DNA of 60,487 bases, counting the filler, from Squatina squatina (Eukaryota), in NCBI GenBank assembly GCA_031763465.1. It is 3 parts of 3 records of this genome, joined end to end, with 100 filler letters (N's around TTAATTAATTAA, not from the genome) between each part and the next. Parts side by side here need not be neighbours in the genome. Positions count along the whole stretch, not along the records: positions 16,045 to 37,303 come from JARFOE010000013.1; 2 more parts are not named here. The stretch is one strand, 5' to 3'. The notes below the pieces were generated by a model that had not been told where the DNA came from, ran no database searches, and was given only the letters and a program-made list of their open reading frames with translations. The position numbers and the translations under genes were made by a program. Position 1 is the stretch's first letter, and each line of letters starts with the position of its first letter. Shown here one piece after another: positions 16,045 to 51,270 of this stretch.

Positions 16045-16290
16045 AAACTCAACTGGTTCACTAATGTCCTTTAGGGAGGGGAATCTGCCGCCCTTACCCG
16101 GTCTGGCCTATATGTGACTCCGGACCCACAGCAACGTGGCTGGCTCTTAACTGCCCTCTGAAATGACCGAGCAAGACACTCGGTTGTAGAAGGCGGCTCA
16201 CCACCACCTCCTTTAGGGTAAATAGGGATGGGCAATAAATGCTGGCCTTGCCAACGATGCTCACATCCCAGGAATGAATATAAAAAATTG
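16045..16290 (+). mobile_element. 3' end of a SINE/LINE
   Basis: Ends ...ggcggctcaccaccacct...gggcaataaatgctggccttgcc...cacatccc...gaatgaat, a recalled chondrichthyan retroposon tail. Confidence 0.55.
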
Positions 16291-16331
16291 TCTGATCTTC
16301 ATTACATATATACATACAACCCTGGCCACAT

Positions 16332-16661
16332 TTATTGAGATTTCAAACACTGACCTTGTGAAGGAGGCAGGCTGTTCTGTTTAGCGGCAGAAGCGGATGG
16401 TTCCGATTCCGATAGTGTGTCTGGCACTTGGGAAGTGATATCCTGGGAAGAACTTTCCACAATTACAACTGGTTCTTGGGTGACGACTACTGGCGGTGCC
16501 TCTAACAACCAGACGACCTTCATTTTACTGGACCGGCAAGTGGATCCTTGTGTCCACTGTTCGACCTTAGAAACCGGATCATCCCCATCGATAATAATCC
16601 ATACCCACCTCTCCCGGAGAGGTAACTTCCCTGTTGCATACTTTGTGACTAACTCATCCAT
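16332..16661 (-). pseudogene. Putative truncated gag-like ORF (109 aa) downstream of the PBS
   Basis: ATG 17 nt after the PBS; MDELVTKYATGKLPLRERWVWII..DPVSKVEQW..KMKVVWLL then an S/P/E-rich linker. Gag identity is inferred from position. Confidence 0.5.
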
Positions 16662-16678
16662 TGTCCATTCTGAACAAT

Positions 16679-16696
16679 GTCCCTGTTCAGGCGCCA
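16679..16696 (-). other. Primer-binding site complementary to the tRNA-Lys(UUU) 3' end
   Basis: Minus strand reads TGGCGCCTGAACAGGGAC, a 17/18 match to the canonical Lys3 PBS TGGCGCCCGAACAGGGAC. Confidence 0.88.
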
Positions 16697-16699
16697 AAT

Positions 16700-17463
16700 T
16701 GTAAGACGTGCGGAATTACCCCTCGCCCTATCCAATAGTTTATAAAATTTGGAACGGAGAACAGACAATTTGAGACAAAGACTTCTGGATAAATTCTTTT
16801 TACTTAAAAATCAATAAAAGATTACAGATAAGAAATTGATGTCCTACTGTAATCCTCAGTTACACATAAATATGCCCAGACCCTTCCCTTTAATCTTAAT
16901 CAATCATAAGCAAAAAAAAAAACTCAGACAAAACTAACACCAGTGGCTGCTCGGTTCAGCTCGATGAATGGTCCGTGGCTGTTTTACCTGCGACTGATCA
17001 GGTCGCCTCCCGACTGCAGCAGTAGCTAATGTCTCTTTCGTAGCAATTTTTGTACCTTAAAAAGTTGGTTGTCCTTCATGCAAACATGTCATAGCATGCG
17101 ACCAATGATCTCCGATAAGCATTTGTTCTTGGTCTGTCTTTTCTCTGAACGTATGGTGATAGCTGCCAGTGGGTCTTTGTTCGTCACTTCCTTCTCAATC
17201 AGTTGATCAGAGGGCCTCAAATCAGAGCCAAGACATCTGCAAAAACTGGTCTTCCCCAAGTCTGTCCTCGTAAAATACTCCCAAGATGTAAACACTGGCC
17301 TCTGATCACAGCAGGCTCAACTCGCCTCCGAACAGCAGGGAACTTCCTTGCCTTTAACATTTGGATGCCTCTTTGTCTTTTACCCGAAGCATCTTGGTCA
17401 GTTTTAAATTTGGCCATGTTACTTCAAATTTTACATCAAAAAGCAAGAATATGCATTCTTACA
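16700..17463 (-). mobile_element. LTR (764 bp) of an LTR retroelement / endogenous retrovirus
   Basis: Perfect inverted termini TGTAAGA...TCTTACA, followed 3 nt later by a tRNA-Lys PBS. TATA-like TACAAAAA at 17047-17054 and AGTAAA at 16799-16804 on the minus strand. It interrupts a CR1 fragment at 17463. Confidence 0.8.
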
Positions 17464-17665
17464 GTCAATGTATCAACTGCCTCTTTAGCCATCTTTCAGG
17501 TCCAGGGGATTTATTGGCTTTCTCCAGTACCTTTTTTTCACGAATGCTAATTTCTTTCAGTTCCTCATTCTCGCTAGACCCTTGGTTCTCCACTTTCTGG
17601 GAGGTTTTTTGTATCTTCTTCTGTGAAGACAGACACACAATATTTGTTTAATTTCTCTGCTATTT
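17464..17665 (-). mobile_element. CR1-type LINE ORF2 fragment
   Basis: AEKLNKY..SVFTEEDT followed by KANKSPGP; same region as the copy at 35310-35869. Confidence 0.75.
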
Positions 17666-19789: not shown

Positions 19790-19975
19790 CTTTTGAAGTA
19801 CCAAAATTCCTTCATTCGTTGCTTCATCGACCTCGAACCTGAAGTTCCCTGCTTCATTCCCTTCGATAATATCAAAGTGCCCCAGCCAGTTATCGGTAAA
19901 TTCTTGGTCGTTGTCAAATACTTTTATGCGCGTGACTTCATCATTCAATGTATTTTCATCCACCGATACTTCATA
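19790..19975 (-). CDS. DSG2: Desmoglein internal exon (EC3 cadherin repeat, DSG2-like), partial gene
   Basis: 186-bp phase-0 exon between acceptor ttcccttgtcttcAG and donor GTaac. Encodes YEVSVDENTLNDEVTRIKVFDNDQEFTDNWLGHFDIIEGNEAGNFRFEVDEATNEGILVLQK, matching recalled DSG2 (EVTRIKVFDADE..SDNWL..GNEGGYF..TNEGI) in length and motifs. Paralog assignment is less certain than family. Confidence 0.82.
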
Positions 19976-20189
19976 CTGAAGACAAGGGAAAAGAAGTGGG
20001 CATTTTATTCAAATGCAATTGCAGTTATGCACCGTAAATNNNNNNNNNNNNNNNNNNNNNNNNNNNNNNNNNNNNNNNNNNNNNNNNNNNNNNNNNNNNN
20101 NNNNNNNNNNNNNNNNNNNNNNNNNNNNNNNNNNNNNNNTCGATTGAGACCTTGAGTGAGATGTTTTTACTGCTTTAAGGCATCTCCCT

Positions 20190-28132: not shown

Positions 28133-28913
28133 NNNNNNNNNNNNNNNNNNNNNNNNNNNNNNNNNNNNNNNNNNNNNNNNNNNNNNNNNNNNNNNNNNNN
28201 NNNNNNNNNNNNNNNNNNNNNNNNNNNNNNNNGGAATGATCGGTAAACTGACACTGTTTTAAGACAAAAATTGGTAACGAGAGCTCTGTTACACTTGAAT
28301 TTCAAAGTACAGAAGCACTGGGATTTTATGTGCCTTTTTGTACACTTTTTTGATCTCCTAAATCATTAGGTTTAAGATACACGCTTTAAGAGTAACTGTG
28401 ACATTTTGAAGTGATCATTTCTCTACTCTCGCTACCCCAGGTGAAACACAACAAAGGTTGTGGGAAGGGGAGGGGAGAGGGACACAGTTAGACAATGGTG
28501 AGCTTTTTCTCTGCTTTTAGTTTAAGTAAGATGCTAAAAACACCAAATTTCGGTAAGAAATACTTTTTTTTTTGCTGAGGAAGGACGCTGAGCAAATCAT
28601 ACATCACGGATTCCAGTTTTTGGAAGCGCTACAGCAAATTTAAGCGGGCCGAGAAATAAAGGTGGTTAGTCACCAATGTTCCCGTTAAGCTGGGCGCGGC
28701 GATATGGAGGTCCCACGAAAGGCTGCTCAATGGCTTTACAACGGAAATAGTGGGAACGTTGGTGGCGCCTCCTGNNNNNNNNNNNNNNNNNNNNNNNNNN
28801 NNNNNNNNNNNNNNNNNNNNNNNNNNNNNNNNNNNNNNNNNNNNNNNNNNNNNNNNNNNNNNNNNNNNNNNNNNAGAAGATCCTAACCTTTTCCTTTCTT
28901 CCCCTTCTTGCAG

Positions 28914-29322
28914 TAAGTGTTCGCCATTGTGCAACTTTGAGGTGGCCATGACAGCGTTCAAAGGGATCTGGACGCAGCAGTTCTGGAAAGCAGTTTCCGG
29001 GGAGTTCCTGGCGATGCTCATCTTTGTCCTTCTCAGCCTGGGTTCCACAATTGGCTGGAGCGGTGAAGATGGACCTTTGAACATTGTCCTCATCTCTCTC
29101 TGTTTTGGACTCAGCATCGCTACCATGGTTCAGTGCTTTGGTCACATCAGTGGGGGTCACGTCAACCCTGTGGTAACTGCTGCCATGGTGTGTACCAGGA
29201 AGCTCAGCCTGGCCAAGGGATTCTTCTACATTCTTGCGCAATGCCTCGGTGCCATCGTAGGAGCAGGAATCCTCTACCTGGTCACGCCGACAGATGTTGT
29301 GGGCGGACTCGGAGTTACCATG
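28914..29322 (+). CDS. AQP4: Aquaporin-4 exon (M23-containing exon, TM1-TM3 and first NPA loop), partial gene
   Basis: Polypyrimidine tract and cAG at 28911-28913, donor ATG|GTAATT after 29322. Encodes KCSPLC...MTAFKGIWTQQFWKAVSGEFLAMLIFVLLSLGSTI...GHISGGHVNPVVT...GGLGVTM, colinear with mammalian AQP4. The M23-equivalent ATG is at 28948. Confidence 0.96.
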
Positions 29323-29417
29323 GTAATTCAATCTCACAAAACTATTAGCCGATTGGGCAGACATGGTGCTGGGTGGGAAGTCAATTATCAAAAGTTATTA
29401 AGAACAATGGGGTCATC

Positions 29418-29753: not shown

Positions 29754-31088
29754 CTAATAATTGCTAACTTTGAAGTTTACCTTGTGCAGTAACTTCCAAA
29801 CTTTAACACGAGCCACTGCTCTCGCTCTAACCTTGGTGAATCTGATCAATTCCGTGCCAATACTTGTCTATGAATCCTTGGTGTTAGCGGAAACTGTAGC
29901 GCTAATCCCCTAACAATCCAGCCCTTTTCATTTTTTATTTAAATGTTGCTTTTTTTTTTGACAAAAAACATTCGATTTGTTACGTGGTGGACACATGACC
30001 CTGAGGACTTGTGTAATTCACCTTTTAGTAAATTCAGTTGAATAGTTTGGAGAGGGTTTTTTATTCCTTGCTGAATCAACATGACGAGCTATCTTTATTA
30101 CAATGGGAAACACTGAATTAATTTGTATGCTTTGTCTGTAGGCAAGTGACAGTGAAACAGAAATATTAAATACCTGGAGGTTATATATTTTGGATATTTT
30201 CAATATTAATGTATATGAGAATCTCTGCCCACCTAAAAAAAAAAATTTGATAATGAGTCTTTACAATTGGCAATTGCTTAAGTCCCTCCCCTCCCAGAAT
30301 GGTGTCGAGAAAAATTTAAATATATACTTTATGTCCTTGTGGGACAGTGTGAGGTAGAATTCCAGTATCATTTATGGGAAGTAATGTACTTGGAGGTTAA
30401 CCTTGGCATAGTTCAATGGCTATATAAATTATTATATGGAAACTGTTGGAAGGGTGTACCCATATGCGGTTCACAACAGTTCTCTAAAATGGGTCGATTA
30501 TTAATCTTTCACAAACGTCCCAGTAAAATTCAACTAACGCGATTGTCATACGGCAGCCCAGGTTAACTTTTTTTTTTCATATTGTGATAATCTCAAAATA
30601 CGATTATCATACCAGATCAATATGAGACCATGCGTGAAGTACCATGATTTCAAAAGCATGATTTCTTTTTAACCCATTAGCACCTGGCAGAATGCTTCTG
30701 GTCCACAATGACTGGAAAANNNNNNNNNNGTGCTGGGCGTTGCAGGGAAACCACGAGGGGTGTCGGTCTGATGCGAATTGGTAATGTGTAGAGAGTTCAA
30801 TTACTACAGCCGGTTCGCCGTATTGTACATATATAAATAATGCCGTAGTTTTGGCAGACGAATGTAAACCAATTTGCAGTACTGTACTTAAAGCATTAAA
30901 ATATTTCCTGGTGTGTGCACCTTTTTAATATGAACACTACCTGGACCATTGCTGGAAAATGAGATGGTGGTGGCCAGTATTGGTTAGCGCCAGTGATTAT
31001 CTTTTTTTTTTGAAAAAAAGAAATCATACTCTTTTTCCCAACAATTACTGTATCATGTCATCAAGACAAATCATATCGTGACATCCCT

Positions 31089-31970
31089 ATCACCAGGTCC
31101 GATCTGAGGAAACTCTACATCTCCAGCGCCTTCGATACGAACACCCCCTTTGGATTACTCAATAAGGTCTGGTTCGAGATCTGCATGTACTTCTGCACAA
31201 GGGGGAGGGAGAACCAGAGAGAACTGGAGGAGGACTCCTTTGGCTTGGCCACAGATGAGGATGGGAGAAGATTTGTCTATTATAAAGCTTGTGGACCATA
31301 CCATAAATCTCGCTCGGTAACTTGGAGCAAGAAGAGAATGGTGAATGATGAGGAGAACTTCCCTAGGATGTATGAAACAGGCACAGAGTTCTGCCCTTAC
31401 GCGAGTTTTGTTAAGTATATCTCCAAACGTAACCCTCTCTGTAGGGCTTTTTTTCAAAGACCTAGGGATCATTGCAGTGAAAGTGATGTGACCTGGTATG
31501 AGAACAAAGCCATTGGCAAAAACCTGCTGGGCACCCGGATGCAGATGTTGTCCAAGGCGGCCAAGCTCTCGAAGACTTACACTAATCACTGTATAGGAGC
31601 AGTTTCCATAGCCACCCTGAGCAGCAGTGCAGGTATCGGCAGCAGGTTGGTCCCTCACCGATCTCCCCCAAACACAAATGGCTCCCATCAGCGTCTCCAG
31701 CAATCATGCCCTTACGCCCTCCAAAGCCACGATGGAGAGATCGTAGGGGTGAAAGTGGAGCAAGCCCTGATGACCCCTGCTCTTTACGAACCTATGTACT
31801 CAGATGCCACCTGTTGTCCACCCTCACCAAAAAGACTCTGCACCCGCTCCACCGATCCTGTAGATTCCCAGAATGTAATTCCAAATGGAAACAACCCACA
31901 GGAATCTATGCTGCAGGAGTCCAGTGGCCAGCTTGGAACCACTACATCAATAATCATATCAACTAACCAG
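31089..31970 (+). CDS. KCTD1: KCTD1 long-isoform exon with DUF3504 (Crypton tyrosine-recombinase-derived) domain, 5' part missing
   Basis: Open frame ITRSDLRKLY...PFGLLNKVWFEICMYFCTRGRENQRELEEDSFGLA...WYENKAIGKNLLGTRMQMLSKAAKLSKTYTNHCIGAVSIATL matches the recalled KCTD1 long isoform. Donor CAG|GTAATG after 31970. The 5' boundary is uncertain. Confidence 0.9.
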
Positions 31971-32271
31971 GTAATGCTTGTGCAATCATAGGCTTATCAG
32001 ATCATCTGATTTTTAAAGCCACCTTTTGAGTAAAAGAAAAGAAAAGCTGTGATGTGTGTTGCACGGGAACTTGAGCTTTATCAAAGTCGCTGTCTGAATG
32101 TAAAGTAATTTAGGAGGTGAACGAATATATTTATTATAGGCCAATCATTTGTAAGCTTAAAATTGAAATTGTTTCATTCCATCCTCTGTCCGCATTTAGT
32201 TTAACTTTTTCTCGGGGAGGTGGGCAATGTTGGTTTGAAAGCTTTTTCAGACGATTTGAGAATATCATAAG

Positions 32272-33567: not shown

Positions 33568-34023
<456 letters not shown>

Positions 34024-35309
34024 TAGTAAGTTAACTGCATGATTTTTTTTTTTGTCATGTAGACACTATTCAGGAATATTTTCACACAAATTAAAAGATA
34101 TTGGCGTAGATATTGGGACACCGAGCACTCGTTTTGCAGATGCTACGCAGCCTCCTAAGTCACCAAAATGGCGGTCAGGAAGTGAGCGCCCATTTCCAAC
34201 CGGATGTGCGCCGTCCACCATATTGAGTTGGGAACCAATGAGCTGTGTCCTTTACGAATGCATCNNNNNNNNNNNNNNNNNNNNNNNNNNNNNNNNNNNN
34301 NNNNNNNNNNNNNNNNNNNNNNNNNNNNNNNNNNNNNNNNNNNNNNNNNNNNNNNNNNNNNNNNCAGCTTCTCCAGTCTCTCCACATAACTGAAGTCCCT
34401 CATCCCTGGTGCCATAAAAGAATAAAAAAGGAAAAAAAAAGTAAATTCATGCGCAGTCCAAAAGTGGACAATGATATTGGCAGAAGTAGTAGAGAGACTA
34501 AAAGAAATCTTTTGTAACAAATGCAGCTCCCAGTGCACAGAAGCTAACGTTAACAGTGTGACAGAAATAAGTAGCCGCCATCCAGCGCTGTATATAAACA
34601 GTCTCCATAGCATTTATTTTTGGAACGATGGAGCTAAATTGTATGCGTGGAACAATATTTCCGACAGTAAATGCTCAATTATCCCCCATAATTGGACTAG
34701 GCAGAGAGTCTGTCTTGTTGTCTCTCTGGTGTGCTTCGCGAAAAAAACAGCACGAAAAGGTCACCAGCATCGTAAACAAAAACAAATGTGGTTTATAATT
34801 CAAGCCAGAACTTTAGACCGTTTTTTATTTAAAAATAACATTTTCTTTTAACGAGGGTGTGTGTTAATACGGACAAACATAATTCCAGGACCAACGAGTC
34901 TACAACTGATACTTTATACCACTTATACTGGGGGGGGGGGGGGGTTAAGGAAAAATGAAATAAATCTTAACTGAATGAAGACTGCGGAGCTTATTAAAAA
35001 CTTACAATCCAAGCTACCAAAAGAATTTCATTAACAAGCTCGGCATCAATTGTGCAGCAAGAAAGGTTTCAATCGAGTCATGTACAAAGAGCTTCAAATT
35101 AAGGATTCTCTTTACCAGTTCAGGAACTACAAGCTTGAAGGAATTCAATCAAATAGAGTCTTCCCCTCCAACCATTAGCACAGCACTGCCTGCGAGGTCT
35201 AGTTAGGAGGATTAACTACAAAAAGAGATGGGAGGTGATATTCCATCAGTTTCTGCAGAACAAAGCGCAAAAGCCCAGTCCATCACAAGTCAAAATAATG
35301 TGAAGACTG

Positions 35310-37403: not shown

Positions 37404-40400
37404 TTGTATAGTGAATGGGTTCTATAATGAGCGGATTCTATAATGAACCGGTTCTACAATGAGATGTTTCTATAATGAGCAGGTTCTATAATGGAGAGGT
37501 TCCACAATGAACGGGTTCAATATGAGCGGGTTATATAATGAGTGGTTTACTATAATGAATGGATTCTATAATGAACGGGCTCTATAATGTATGGGTTCTA
37601 TAATGAGCGGATTCTATAATGAGCGGGTTCTATAAGGAAGAGTGTTCTGTAATGAACGAGTTCTATGATGAATGGGTTCTATGATGAACGGTTTCTATGA
37701 TGAGCTGTTTCTATAATGAGCGGGTTCTACGGTGAGCAGGTTCTCGAATGAGCGGGTGCTTTAATGAGCATGTTCTGTAATGAACAGGTTCCATAATGAA
37801 TGGGTTCTATAATGAACCGGTTCTATAAAGTATAGTATTTCTAATGAATATTCTCTATACTGAGTGGGTTCTATAATGTATGGGTTCTATAATGAATATT
37901 CTCTACAATGAGTGCTTTGTATCGTGAATGGCTTCTACAATGAGCGTATTACATAATGAGTGGTTTATATAATGGGCGGGTTATATAATGAGCGACTTCT
38001 ATAATGAACAGGTTCTATAATGCAGAGGGTCCATAATGAACTGGTTCTATAATAAGCAGTTTCTATAATTAGCAATTTCTAAAAGGAGTGGGTTCTATAA
38101 TGAAAAAGTTCTATAAAGAAAGTTTTCTCTAATGAATGTGTTCTATAATGAGCAGGTTCTATAATGAGCGGGTTCTATAATGAACGGGTTCTATAATGAA
38201 TGGGTTCTATAATGAGCGGGTTCTATAATGAACGGGTTCTATGAGCCGTTTCTATATTGAACCGGTTCTATAATGTATGGGTTCTATAATGATCATTTTC
38301 CATAAAGAGCGGTTTCAAAAATGAGCGGGTTCTATAATGTACGGCTTCTATGATGAATATTATCTATAATGAATATTCTCTATAATGTGTGGTTTCTATA
38401 AAGAGCTGGTTCTATAATGGGCCGGCACGATATTGAGTGAATTCTGTAATCAGCGGGTTCTATAAGCAGTGGGTTCCAGAAGGAGCGTGTTCTATAATAA
38501 ACGTGTTCTATTATGAACGGGTTCTATGATGAATGGGTTCTATAATGAGTGGGTTCTCGAATGAGCAAGTTCTGTAATGCATGTGTTCTATCATGAGCGT
38601 GTTGTATCATGAGTGGGTGCTATAATGAGCGGGTTCTGTAATGAATGGGTTGCATAATGAACGGGTTCTATAATGAGCGGTTTCAAAAATGAACGGATTC
38701 TATAATGAACGGATTCTATAATGAGCAGGTTATATAATGAACCGGTTCTATAATGAATATTCTCTTTAATGAGTGGGTTCTCTTATGAACAGGTACTATA
38801 ATGTATGGGTTCTATAATGAATATTCTCTACAATGAGTGGTTTGTATAGTGAATGGGTTCTATAATGAGCGGATTCTATAATGAACCGGTTCTACAATGA
38901 GATGTTTCTATAATGAGCNNNNNNNNNNNNNNNNNNNNNNNNNNNNNNNNNNNNNNNNNNNNNNNNNNNNNNNNNNNNNNNNNNNNNNNNNNNNNNNNNN
39001 NNNNNNNNNNNNNNNNNNNNNNNNNNNNNNNNNNNNNNNNNNNNNNNNNNNNNNNNNNNNNNNNNNNNNNNNNNNNNNNNNNNNNNNNNNNNNNNNNNNN
39101 NNNNNNNNNNNNNNNNNNNNNNNNNNNNNNNNNNNNNNNNNNNNNNNNNNNNNNNNNNNNNNNNNNNNNNNNNNNNNNNNNNNNNNNNNNNNNNNNNNNN
39201 NNNNNNNNNNNNNNNNNNNNNNNNNNNNNNNNNNNNNNNNNNNNNNNNNNNNNNNNNNNNNNNNNNNNNNNNNNNNNNNNNNNNNNNNNNNNNNNNNNNN
39301 NNNNNNNNNNNNNNNNNNNNNNNNNNNNNNNNNNNNNNNNNNNNNNNNNNNNNNNNNNNNNNNNNNNNNNNNNNNNNNNNNNNNNNNNNNNNNNNNNNNN
39401 NNNNNNNNNNNNNNNNNNNNNNNNNNNNNNNNNNNNNNNNNNNNNCAACGAGCGGGTTCTATAAAGGTGTGTTCTATAATGGGGTGATCTGTAACAGGTG
39501 GATTCTATAACAGTTGCTTCTATAACAGGCGGGTTCTACAACAGCACGTTCTATAATGGCGGGTTCTATAACAGGTGTGTTCTATAACAGGTGGGTTCTA
39601 TAATGGGGTGATCTATAACGGGTGCATTCTATAACAGTAGGTTCTGTAACAGGCGGGTTCTACAACAGCATGTTCTATAATGGCTGGTTCTATAACGAAC
39701 GGGTTCTATAACAGGGGCTTCTATAATGGGCGGGTTCTATAACGAGCAGGTTCTATAGCGGGCGGGTTCTATAATGGGCAGGTTCCACAACAGGCAGGTT
39801 CTATAACGAGGGAGTTCTATAATGAGAGGGTTCTATAATGGGCAGGTTCTATAATGCGCAGTTTCTATAACAAACGGGTTCTATAACAGGCGGGTTCTAT
39901 AATGGGGGGGTTCTATAATGGGTGGCTTCTAAAACAGTTGGTTCTATAACAGGCGGGTTCTATAATAGCAGGTTCTATAAAAGGTGGGTTCTATAACGGG
40001 CAGTTTCTGTAACGAACGGTTTCTATAATGAGCGGGTTCCATATTGTTGGGTTCTACAACGGATGTGTTCTATAATGAGTGGGTTCTGTAATGGACAGGT
40101 TCTATAACTAGCAGGTTCTATAATGAGCGGGTTCTATAACGAGGGTTCTATAATGGGTGAGATCTTTAGCGGGCAGTTTCTATTACGAGCATGTTCTATA
40201 ATGGGCAGGTTCTATAATGGACAGGTTCTATAACAGACAGTTTATGTGATGAACGGTTTCTATAACGAACGGGTTCCATATGGGCGAGTTCTATAATGGG
40301 CAGGTTCTATAACGAACGCGTTTGATAATGGGCGGGTTCTGTAACGGGCGGGTTCCATAATGAGCGGGTTCTATAACGGGCATGTCCTATAACANNNNNN

Positions 40401-41431
40401 NNNNNNNNNNNNNNNNNNNNNNNNNNNNNNNNNNNNNNNNNNNNNNNNNNNNNNNNNNNNNNNNNNNNNNNNNNNNNNNNNNNNNNNNNNNNNNGGGTTC
40501 TATAACAAGCAGGTTCTATAATGAGTGGGTTCTATAATGGGCAGGTTCCATAATAAGTGGGTTCTAAAACAATGGATCTATAATGAGTGGGCTCTATAAC
40601 GGGTGAGATCTATAGCGGGCAGTTTCTATAATAAGCAGGTTCTTAAACAGGTGGGTTCTATAATGAGCAGGTTCTATAACGGGCAGTTTATGTAAGGAAC
40701 GGTGTCTATAACAAGCGGGTTCCATATGGTCGGGTTCTCTAATGGACGGGTTCTATAACGTGCGGGTTCGATAATGGGCGGGTTCGATAATGGGCCAGTT
40801 TGATATCAGGCGGGTTCAATAACGGGTGGGTTCTATAATGAGCAGGTTCTGTAATGGGCAGTTGCTATAACGAGTGGGTTCTATAGTGGACAGGTTCTAA
40901 AATGAGCAGGTTATATAATGAGCAGATTTTATAACGAGGGTTCTATAACGAGTGGGCTCTGTAACGGGCGAGATCTATAACGGGCAGGTTCTATAACAGG
41001 CAGGTTCTATAAAGGGCGGGTGCTATGATGGGCAGTTTCTGTAACGAACGGTTTCTGCAAAGAGCGGGTTCCATATGGGCTGGTTCTATAATGGGCGGGT
41101 TCTGTAACGAGTGGGTTCTATAATGAGCGGTTTCTATAACGAGTGGTCTATAACGAGTTGGCTCTATAACGGGCGTGATCTATAGCAGGCAGTTTCTATA
41201 ATTGGCAGGTTCTATAACGGGCAGGTTCTGTAACAGGCGGGTTCTATAATGGGCGGCTTTTATAACGGGCGGTTTCTATAAAGGCCGCGTTCTATGACGG
41301 GCAGTTTCTGTAACGAACAGGTTCTATAACAAGCGGGTTCCATAATGGACGGGTTCTATAATGTGTGGTTTCGATAATGGGCGGGTTCAATAATGAGCAG
41401 GTGTTACAAGGGTTGGTTTCTATGGTTCTAT
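37404..41431. repeat. 16-bp tandem satellite, consensus GGGTTCTATAA(T/C)G(A/G)GC, in three contigs
   Basis: For example gggttctataatgagc gggttctataatgaac gggttctataatgaat; roughly 200 diverged monomers in 37404-38918, 39446-40394 and 40495-41431. Confidence 0.97.
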
Positions 41432-44174
41432 NNNNNNNNNNNNNNNNNNNNNNNNNNNNNNNNNNNNNNNNNNNNNNNNNNNNNNNNNNNNNNNNNNNNN
41501 NNNNNNNNNNNNNNNNNNNNNNNNNNNNNNNNNNNNNNNNNNNNNNNNNNNNNNNNNNNNNNNNNNNNNNNNNNNNNNNNNNNNNNNNNNNNNNNNNNNN
41601 NNNNNNNNNNNNNNNNNNNNNNNNNNNNNNNNNNNNNNNNNNNNNNNNNNNNNNNNNNNNNNNNNNNNNNNNNNNNNNNNNNNNNNNNNNNNNNNNNNNN
41701 NNNNNNNNNNNNNNNNNNNNNNNNNNNNNNNNNNNNNNNNNNNNNNNNNNNNNNNNNNNNNNNNNNNNNNNNNNNNNNNNNNNNNNNNNNNNNNNNNNNN
41801 NNNNNNNNNNNNNNNNNNNNNNNNNNNNNNNNNNNNNNNNNNNNNNNNNNNNNNNNNNNNNNNNNNNNNNNNNNNNNNNNNNNNNNNNNNNNNNNNNNNN
41901 NNNNNNNNNNNNNNNNNNNNNNNNNNNNNNNNNNNNNNNNNNNNNNNNNNNNNNNNNNNNNNNNNNNNNNNNNNNNNNNNNNNNNNNNNNNNNNNNNNNN
42001 NNNNNNNNNNNNNNNNNNNNNNNNNNNNNNNNNNNNNNNNNNNNNNNNNNNNNNNNNGCCTGCGCCCGTTTCCGGGGATGCCAAATTTCTCGGCCAAGAC
42101 CTATTTATATCTGGATAGATATCTATATAAAAGATAGAATAACATAGAGAGATATGCGGTGGTCCAGAGCCTAACAGTACATTCTTTCAGCACATTTCAG
42201 CTTTGCCCAGTGATTTCTACCAATGCAGCAGCGATGATTTATCACCAGCTTTTGAGTGTTTTCTGGTTCGGATCAAACCAAAGAGAATATCTGAACTGAT
42301 GGCAGTTCAATCATCCCTGCTGTGTAGCTTATTAGTCAAGTATTCAGGTAATTGTATGCTTAGATATAAAGTCTTGTCTGATGTTCGGCCTCATTAGGAA
42401 ACTGTTGTTGGATGAGTGCCTTTTGAATGGAATTCAGTTCTGTTAGGATTAATGCAAGTTGTGCTCAGACAATAAAAGTATAACTGATTTATATCCATGT
42501 CTAATATCTAGGCTTTTCTAAGACAACTGAAATATAGCTTGTCACTTTTTAATGGTCCTGTTCAGCGGATATACTGGATGAGAAAATTGAATAAATTATT
42601 TTGTGAGTTAGACCATTCTAATGCTGAGATTGCAAGTAACTGTGGGAGCTGCTTTATATGGCCTCATCGTTATAATTAGATTTTCTCTTCCTTNNNNNNN
42701 NNNNNNNNNNNNNNNNNNNNNNNNNNNNNNNNNNNNNNNNNNNNNNNNNNNNNNNNNNNNNNNNNNNNNNNNNNNNNNNNNNNNNNNNNNNNNCAATTGT
42801 GGGCCCATGAATGAAGAACTAGCAGATGGATATTTAATATGGATTAATCTACAGTAATGCAAATGGGAGCAGGTACCAGTAAATGTGTATAATGCGAAAG
42901 AATATCTGACAGGTTGAAAAAGATTTGGGAATGAACAATGCGTATATCCTGAAAGCATCTGATCAGTGTGAAGCAACTATTAATTAAAACCGTGAACTGT
43001 ATCCAAGTCTCCTACTTCTTTATCCTCTGCTGCCTTGTGGTCCTCGAACCGTAAGAGGATGCAGGTTGAGGGGAGGGAGTGGGGTGAGGGAGAGCTGTTG
43101 CTTTCCCTCACAGAATCTGTCCTTTTTACTATGTACTGTTTGCTCCTTGTCCCATGTCACTTGGAATCTTATATGTTCATTATTTGCTCCCTTGATAACT
43201 TCTTATCCCAGTAGCTCCATGACCACGGCCCAAAAAGACAGATCTGAAAAGCATTGGATTTCAAATCGGAACAAGGTATACAGACATTGCACAGATCAAT
43301 GGTGAATTTAATTCTGGAATATTCGAAGAAAAATATTGCAATGTTTGACTGTTGAGTGGTATCTTCAAGTCATGGTAGGGATCACAGTAAGCAAAATCCA
43401 CACAAACATTTACAGCTCTTTAGGTCTTGCGCACATTTGATTTTGCTAATTGATTATTTCCGCTCAGCAAGCTAAGATGCAGAATGAGAGCTCCCCAAAT
43501 TCTTCCCCAACAAAATGTCTTCATTTCAATATCATTCAAACATACTAAAAATGACAGGAAAAGACTGACTGGTCCATCAAGCTTGACCCATCCAGACATG
43601 TTACGACCTACACCCACGATTAACGCAACCTCCCCCTCAATCACACAATTTCTAGAGAGAAGCAAAAACTTTAGATCAATTTAAGAAAAAATCCTGAAAG
43701 ATTATTCTCTGACTCCCAACGATAATCAAGAAAGCTCCACGAGGCTGCAGTGAGGCTGGTCCTATCTGCTACATCAATGTGTCCTGATGAGTGATTGTTA
43801 ATTACTGCCTATTTTATGGTGTAATCTAGTCCATCAGAACTGGATTACGATTGTTCATACTTGTTTCATTTTCATCCCATCAGTCACAGCTGGAATTGGA
43901 CATGGATCCAAGAGCTGGGCAGCGTGCCAATTCATTCAGTCCCCAGCAGTTTCTTCCTAGTTTATTTCTAAGGTTACACTGATTGAAAACTTTGACCTCG
44001 TACCTCCTCACTCGAACCAATCTGTGGAGCTGCTTCAAAATTTCTGATGGGGAGAGAATCCTTGCATCAAATCATTGCTTTGTTTCCAAATCATTCCAGT
44101 TTTGGGAGGATTTGCAAGGTATAAATATATTTCAGCCCAATGGCACAGTATTAGCATAATAATATCTACCAGTG

Positions 44175-50222: not shown

Positions 50223-51270
<1,048 letters not shown>

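Follow-up and report, generated by a model that had tools for sequence, protein, structure and literature searches.

The window, a stretch of 60,487 nucleotides of Squatina squatina DNA (assembly GCA_031763465.1; filler included), contains on its minus strand the beginning of a retrovirus-like element. A 764-bp block (17463-16700) opens with TGTAAGA, closes with TCTTACA and is followed by an ATT spacer and an 18-nt primer binding site (PBS; 16679-16696, minus strand) that matches the 3' end of tRNA-Lys(TTT) at 17 of 18 positions. Beyond a 17-nt leader (16662-16678, minus strand), which in most other copies of the element is longer and carries an in-frame upstream ATG, an ATG at 16661 opens 109 codons that end with a stop at 16332. 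The termini, length, spacer, PBS, 17-nt leader and 109-codon frame had been described in the initial annotation and were recovered when the sequence was read again. The block has the TG...CA ends of a long terminal repeat (LTR), occupies the position of a 5' LTR, with the PBS next to it, and shares its termini with other copies in the assembly (K2P 0.18-0.27 to nine other full-length copies). The single PBS mismatch holds against all five host tRNA-Lys(TTT) genes; the corresponding tRNA 3'-end pattern occurs at six loci in the assembly, five of them Lys(TTT) and one called Gln. The last is a tRNA gene at 315-387 of L204 (G000:C924838), with a tRNA-Lys-type 3' end and an ARAGORN call of Gln(TTG). 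At the position of the LTR TATA box (17048-17054, minus strand), 33 of 36 aligned copies have a TATA start and the window copy does not, and a candidate polyadenylation signal, which would be the AGTAAA variant, lies at 16799-16804 (minus strand; AGTAAA in 24/36 and AATAAA in 4/36 aligned copies).

The element maps to G000:C13 around 15,212,000 in the assembly search and sits on a 1.6-kb contig piece (16045-17665) between a filler join and a 100-N gap. No 3' LTR was found in the 20 kb fetched around the window copy, a stretch that is gappy, and a Pfam search with three window frames gave nothing below E 0.24. Since pieces from runs X1 and X2 are 98% and 100% identical to the window LTR, the ERV copy itself is real. 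On its outer side, the LTR adjoins a minus-strand fragment (17464-17665) that was compared with other CR1 copies and that we take to be CR1-like ORF2. The LTR had been described as breaking this fragment exactly at its end; the fragment indeed stops there, yet the first five bases of the LTR equal the CR1 continuation in one of three other CR1 copies and are one base off in the other two. This boundary accordingly says less about an integration site than the initial annotation supposed, and the left limit of the LTR is uncertain. Elsewhere, the window contains a long tandem array (37404-42200) whose period is 16 bp, a lone desmoglein-2-like exon (19790-19978, minus strand) and plus-strand pieces of aquaporin (MIP; 28877-29330), DUF3504 (31014-31988) and KCTD1/15 (33571-34026). 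No other desmoglein exon was found in the parts retrieved from the 130 kb of scaffold around it, about 11 kb under the window excepted. Because the aquaporin, DUF3504 and KCTD1/15 pieces lie less than 20 kb from desmoglein and metadherin exons, the 100-N gaps likely conceal large distances.

An old LTR family and the start of its gag gene

A search of the assembly with the LTR, the check that the initial annotation had proposed, returned 736 candidates, and all 40 of those scored match. The 39 other copies are 71-81% identical to the window LTR over the main match, and those reaching an end share the same start and stop termini; an LTR with so many copies and common termini is not a chance arrangement. 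Divergence among ten full-length copies (K2P 0.15-0.28, median 0.21, 45 pairs) marks the family as old. The target-site duplications of 4-6 bp anticipated for other copies were seen in a single case: among nine both-ended copies, one has a clean 4-bp duplication (L002, within a CR1-like repeat) and the rest are not clean, L003 being a 5' LTR and two more possibly so. In one locus, L025 (G000:C235133, 1-1741), an env-like end, an LTR, a PBS and a gag start follow one another in a single run, an arrangement that could represent tandem proviruses with a common LTR, an integrated circle or a chimera.

The first 53 codons of the ORF (16503-16661, minus strand) have relatives in the assembly (141 of 150 scored candidates match), and Gag homologues are present in Scyliorhinus torazame as well. 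Among the 26 copies that align with them gap-free, differences at first, second and third codon positions number 265/209/407 for the 18 distant copies and 68/76/93 for the eight closest, a third-position excess against a near-even spread that would reflect selection while the sequence was viral and neutral decay once it was resident in the host. The structure model of the gag homologue P0097 pairs a small helical domain with a coiled coil of 130 residues, and whole-Gag fold searches returned coiled coils or weak matches only, none at E<=0.001. Together, homologue matches, codon-position excess and model identify codons 1-53 as a genuine part of a viral gene, predicted to encode the small helical domain ahead of a long coiled coil. 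The distant gag relatives L072, L075, L080, L081, L082 and L084 carry another PBS, presumably Arg-type, a difference that suggests a primer switch inside the group.

A metadherin exon joined to gag

The similarity to gag stops within the ORF. In all 39 other copies, the internal region past query position 198 of 410 (approximately window position 16502) is unmatched, and from codon 54 the window sequence belongs to a host gene. Codons 54-102 match the metadherin (MTDH/LYRIC) family in all 14 protein-search hits, with 73-90% identity, and correspond to residues 540-588 of Heptranchias metadherin (90% identical). What had been read as an S/P/E-rich linker of Gag is thus a host exon, the penultimate coding exon of metadherin (16355-16503, minus strand), an assignment that draws on the protein matches, a contig from run X3 and an exon phase in agreement with the neighbouring metadherin exons. 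In contrast to metadherin as otherwise known, the exon in this assembly is missing the acceptor together with its first 5 nt and has gag in their place; its GT donor is intact at 16354. Codons 103-109 run into the metadherin intron (16045-16354, minus strand), which comprises the read-through codons and the stop of the ORF, followed at 16045-16290 by a very high-copy repeat (summed depth 5,000-67,000) that is presumably SINE-like. The segment 16505-16290 is single-copy in the assembly, the last metadherin exon follows further down this scaffold, on the same strand (G000:C13:15207782-15207853), and five further exons with intact visible splice sites were found on small contigs. A desmoglein exon had also been considered for the linker, and was rejected when all nine shark desmoglein-like proteins mapped only to 19790-19981. 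The shark-like metadherin P0083 carries the UniRef label Kangiella spongicola, which is probably a contaminant or a mislabel. By its matches, the 109-codon ORF reads as a chimera of gag (codons 1-53), metadherin (54-102) and intron (103-109), and on present evidence it is not a biological unit; of the initial description as LTR, PBS and gag-like ORF, the LTR, the PBS and a gag start stand, and the ORF as a single gag does not.

The joint falls at 16502-16503 (minus strand), where two bases (AG) fit both sides, as judged from the continuation in the gag family and from the X3 contig. This contig (158 nt, depth 2.7) matches 16405-16503 at 98 of 99 positions and past 16503 reads not gag but a pyrimidine tract and a CAG acceptor, which yields the VEEA start seen in metadherin homologues; the acceptor evidence is one contig from one run of one study, and X3 may be a sister species. 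A search of this assembly did not find the normal metadherin acceptor, an absence to be expected from a real deletion and from a gappy assembly alike, and no read or contig, those of the sparse runs X1-X3 included, spans the joint in either direction.

Similar mid-exon joints occur at least five times in this assembly, once inside this window. There, an LRRTM-type exon (50254-51270, minus strand) that matches residues 1-208 of the 346 of LRRTM2 breaks within its contig at about 50513, with no GT at the switch, and continues as a Myb/SANT (Myb_DNA-bind_5) piece. Further examples came from 25 cadherin loci returned by the desmoglein search (29 before two desmoglein exons and two overlapping loci were set aside; their open frames total about 40 kb, in part counted twice), among which nine frame ends were inspected: four are broken within the contig and have no splice site at the joint (L172, L181, L185, L187), two are probably broken (L171, with a GT at the joint, and L177) and three are native or simply frameshifted (L183, L188, L189). 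The exon in L181 is fused to a repeat present in 11 other loci, and a PDB search gave no identity for the piece fused to the exon in L187. The six broken or probably broken exons are taken to be CELSR- (as in L187), FAT- and protocadherin-type, and the continuation expected for the exon in L185 is likewise assumed.

The gag/metadherin joint is very probably an assembly artefact, in which case the ERV stump may lie outside metadherin altogether and the 109-codon ORF would be absent from the animal. The fuller reading, which is somewhat less secure and still clearly the probable one, is that 17463-16503 is the LTR, PBS and 53 gag codons of an old ERV resembling snakehead retrovirus (SnRV), to which a metadherin exon (16503-16355) was joined by an assembly chimera. 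The principal alternative is a real deletion allele, in which an ERV in the intron before the penultimate metadherin exon lost its 3' part together with the exon acceptor through microhomology; transcripts of such an allele would use a cryptic AG or leave the exon out, and the allele itself would probably be a damaged, heterozygous or private variant. It would account for a joint within one contig with a 2-nt overlap, as in real deletions, and for the absence of the normal acceptor from an assembly in which the other metadherin exons found keep visible splice sites. The normal acceptor in X3 speaks against it, however, as do the five or more like joints in LRRTM, CELSR-, FAT- and protocadherin-type exons, which would be too many for conserved genes, and a deletion allele is considered unlikely.

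A much bolder version supposes that the joint is not only real but used, with an old LTR in the last-but-one metadherin intron driving a short functional fusion as a case of retroviral exonisation in a shark lineage. The candidate product would fuse 53 Gag residues in frame to the metadherin exon, whose intact donor would splice to the last exon, for a total of about 126 residues and a basic C-terminal tail (KKKKRARRET). The in-frame join, the intact donor and a last exon that follows on this scaffold and strand are all compatible with it. Yet it requires a real joint, the TATA position of the window copy is not TATA, the near-even gag differences to the eight closest gapless copies resemble neutral decay, and chance alone would put one third of joints in frame. 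Were such a fusion real and expressed, it would count as a notable co-option; its likelihood, and that of an LTR driving it, is very slight.

The artefact reading has consequences beyond this locus. Chimeric joints inside contigs number at least four among the 25 cadherin loci and two in this window, and findings of fusion, exon capture or truncation from this genome need raw-read support.

Relatives with capsid and pol

The window copy has no pol, and its assignment to a retroviral class rests on the homology of its gag to more complete relatives. Two of these, L075 and L076, begin with the same Gag N-terminus (53-54% amino acid identity over the N-terminal probe) and continue on the same contig with capsid-like, protease-like and reverse transcriptase (RT) regions. 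Modelled by itself, the capsid region of L128 gave what the whole-Gag searches had not: it resembles retroviral CA, with the MLV CA C-terminal domain as the best match (Z 11.8, rmsd 2.9, 87 aligned residues); rows 1-34 of the fold search are all capsids or capsid-derived, foamy CA ranks 37-38, and Foldseek ranked the same chains at the top, but at E 0.045. A zf-CCHC knuckle is present in the gag homologues P0097 and P0099, and pol in one relative has the order PR-RT-RH-like (tether)-RH-IN, with two RNase H-type domains.

In an RT tree of 62 rows, which holds no foamy or lokiretrovirus references and from which L076 (79 aa) was excluded by length, the RTs from this assembly fall among the retroviruses (100/100). 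They are separate from the 20 rows of Gypsy type and also from a clade (100/99) with the look of class I. The long branch of L075 comes from a frameshift within the piece used. The family RTs lie near ERVs of coelacanth, frog and turtle and share a clade with SnRV at 88/28 only. SnRV is the best-scoring named virus (Pol, 212 bits, 43% identity), ahead of foamy virus (173, the score that bears on foamy-like ERVs of clade Tu; foamy rows are not in the tree), MLV (146-148) and Ty3 (112), and the motifs LDISNGFWS and QQYTWT.LPQGFH.SP.IFHQ are common to the family and SnRV; the SnRV sequence, P0023, was recognised as such by eye from a sequence in the supplement of PMC7947760. This phylogeny, the RT half of the RT/IN tree that the initial annotation had called for, indicates that the RT of the relatives is retroviral and not Gypsy. 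The window element is most likely the 5' end of a chondrichthyan-type ERV of class III, and its family likely belongs to the SnRV-like group (clade Huo, class III).

Such ERVs have precedents. In the available part of PMC4422223, elephant shark ERVs cluster with SnRV (CmiERV lineage I); what could be consulted of PMC6001957 describes clade Huo as SnRV-related and widespread; and the accessible text of PMC11089739 counts 2,843 RT loci of clade III across six chondrichthyan genomes. Of the suggestion of a possibly uncatalogued chondrichthyan ERV family, the type of element stands, but the group is not new, SnRV-like ERVs being on record from elephant shark; the stump is a genuine ERV of an already known kind, and the family itself is probably uncatalogued. 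It resembles SnRV and SnRV-like ERVs in its RT motifs, its cartilaginous-fish host and, in the relatives found here, a gag-pol-env organisation between TG...CA LTRs, but the closer RTs (50-54%) are those of unnamed coelacanth and frog ERVs. Membership in ERV4, likewise a group of ERVs outside classes I and II with env, was considered and rejected: ERV4 is described in the available part of PMC4299795 as having no Gag zinc finger and 5-bp target-site duplications, whereas here the gag homologues have a CCHC knuckle and the one clean duplication is 4 bp.

Identification of the element as an endogenous lokiretrovirus is improbable. It would be the first in cartilaginous fish, the screen published in PMC7947760 listing, in the available part, none in six chondrichthyan genomes, and it would suit a Gag with an N-terminal coiled coil, as in Bik-1, and the env-like piece of L085, which resembles a lokiretrovirus Env by eye only. 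The reading was dropped on the RT motifs, since gag-linked contigs have the SnRV motif LPQGFH.SP, not the PFGY.NSP of the two lokiretrovirus RTs with which they were compared by eye in the available supplement of PMC7947760. A Gypsy/Metaviridae origin, which the initial annotation had left open and to which a very short leader after the PBS and a window copy without pol would lend themselves, is very improbable, being already contradicted by the position of the gag-linked RTs in the retrovirus clade (100/100), the dual RNase H of a relative and env-like frames that adjoin family LTRs; it could be revived only if every one of the contigs that link gag to RT (L075, L076, L128 and L129) were a chimera.

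A subfamily without capsid

The copies closest to the window element are organised differently from these complete relatives. All six whose gag DNA is 77% or more identical and whose family sequence extends for 1,000 nt or more lack a capsid and have one AT-rich non-coding segment in common, part of which is also carried by seven more distant or shorter copies. L026 (81%, 968 nt) has neither capsid nor AT-rich segment, and L071 (73% gag identity) has a capsid. In the more distant L085 (65%), a shortened gag is followed by the AT-rich segment and an env-like region, with no RT, and in L018 and L025 env-like frames lie ahead of a family LTR. The env-like frames of L085, L025 and L018 are broken and show an RKRR site, a Cys-rich stretch and a hydrophobic C-terminal segment; the env-like piece had no Pfam or PDB match and was likened to F-type Env by eye only. 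To judge from these sequences, the copies nearest to the window element make up a capsid-less, Lys-primed subfamily, which probably keeps env and has probably lost pol, the latter on the basis of the one copy read through to env (L085). The initial interpretation as the 5' end of an internally deleted ERV is thereby redistributed: the 5' end stands, the window copy is cut off at the joint, and the internal deletion is that of the subfamily.

This combination of a Lys(TTT) primer with the absence of capsid and, in one copy read to env, of pol distinguishes the subfamily from SnRV-like ERVs, and a string search for the Lys PBS found no match in the available supplement of PMC4422223. A parallel is BHIKHARI (Bik-1) of zebrafish, likewise a fish ERV that has been amplified without pol and has a coiled coil at the start of its Gag; in the available text of bioRxiv 10.1101/2024.03.25.586437, Bik-1 is a relative of lokiretroviruses that keeps its capsid and was recently active, whereas the subfamily described here is old (LTR K2P median 0.21), has lost its capsid and apparently retains env. 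In searches that covered the subscription literature thinly, no paper was found on this ERV family, on non-autonomous shark ERVs or on an ERV-metadherin fusion.

From these features we infer a non-autonomous provirus. Host tRNA-Lys(TTT) would prime the element, which would integrate as a provirus coding for no more of Gag than its N-terminal domain and coiled coil; the common non-coding DNA and probably env would come next, and complete relatives would supply the capsid, RT and integrase for its copying and integration. The window copy would later have decayed neutrally and lost its TATA box. SnRV-like ERVs were already known from cartilaginous fish, and the window element, as it most likely stands, matters little in itself. 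The family, however, seems to owe its spread to a Lys-primed form that had lost capsid and probably pol and had kept the Gag N-terminus and env, and elements without pol are overlooked by RT-based screens.
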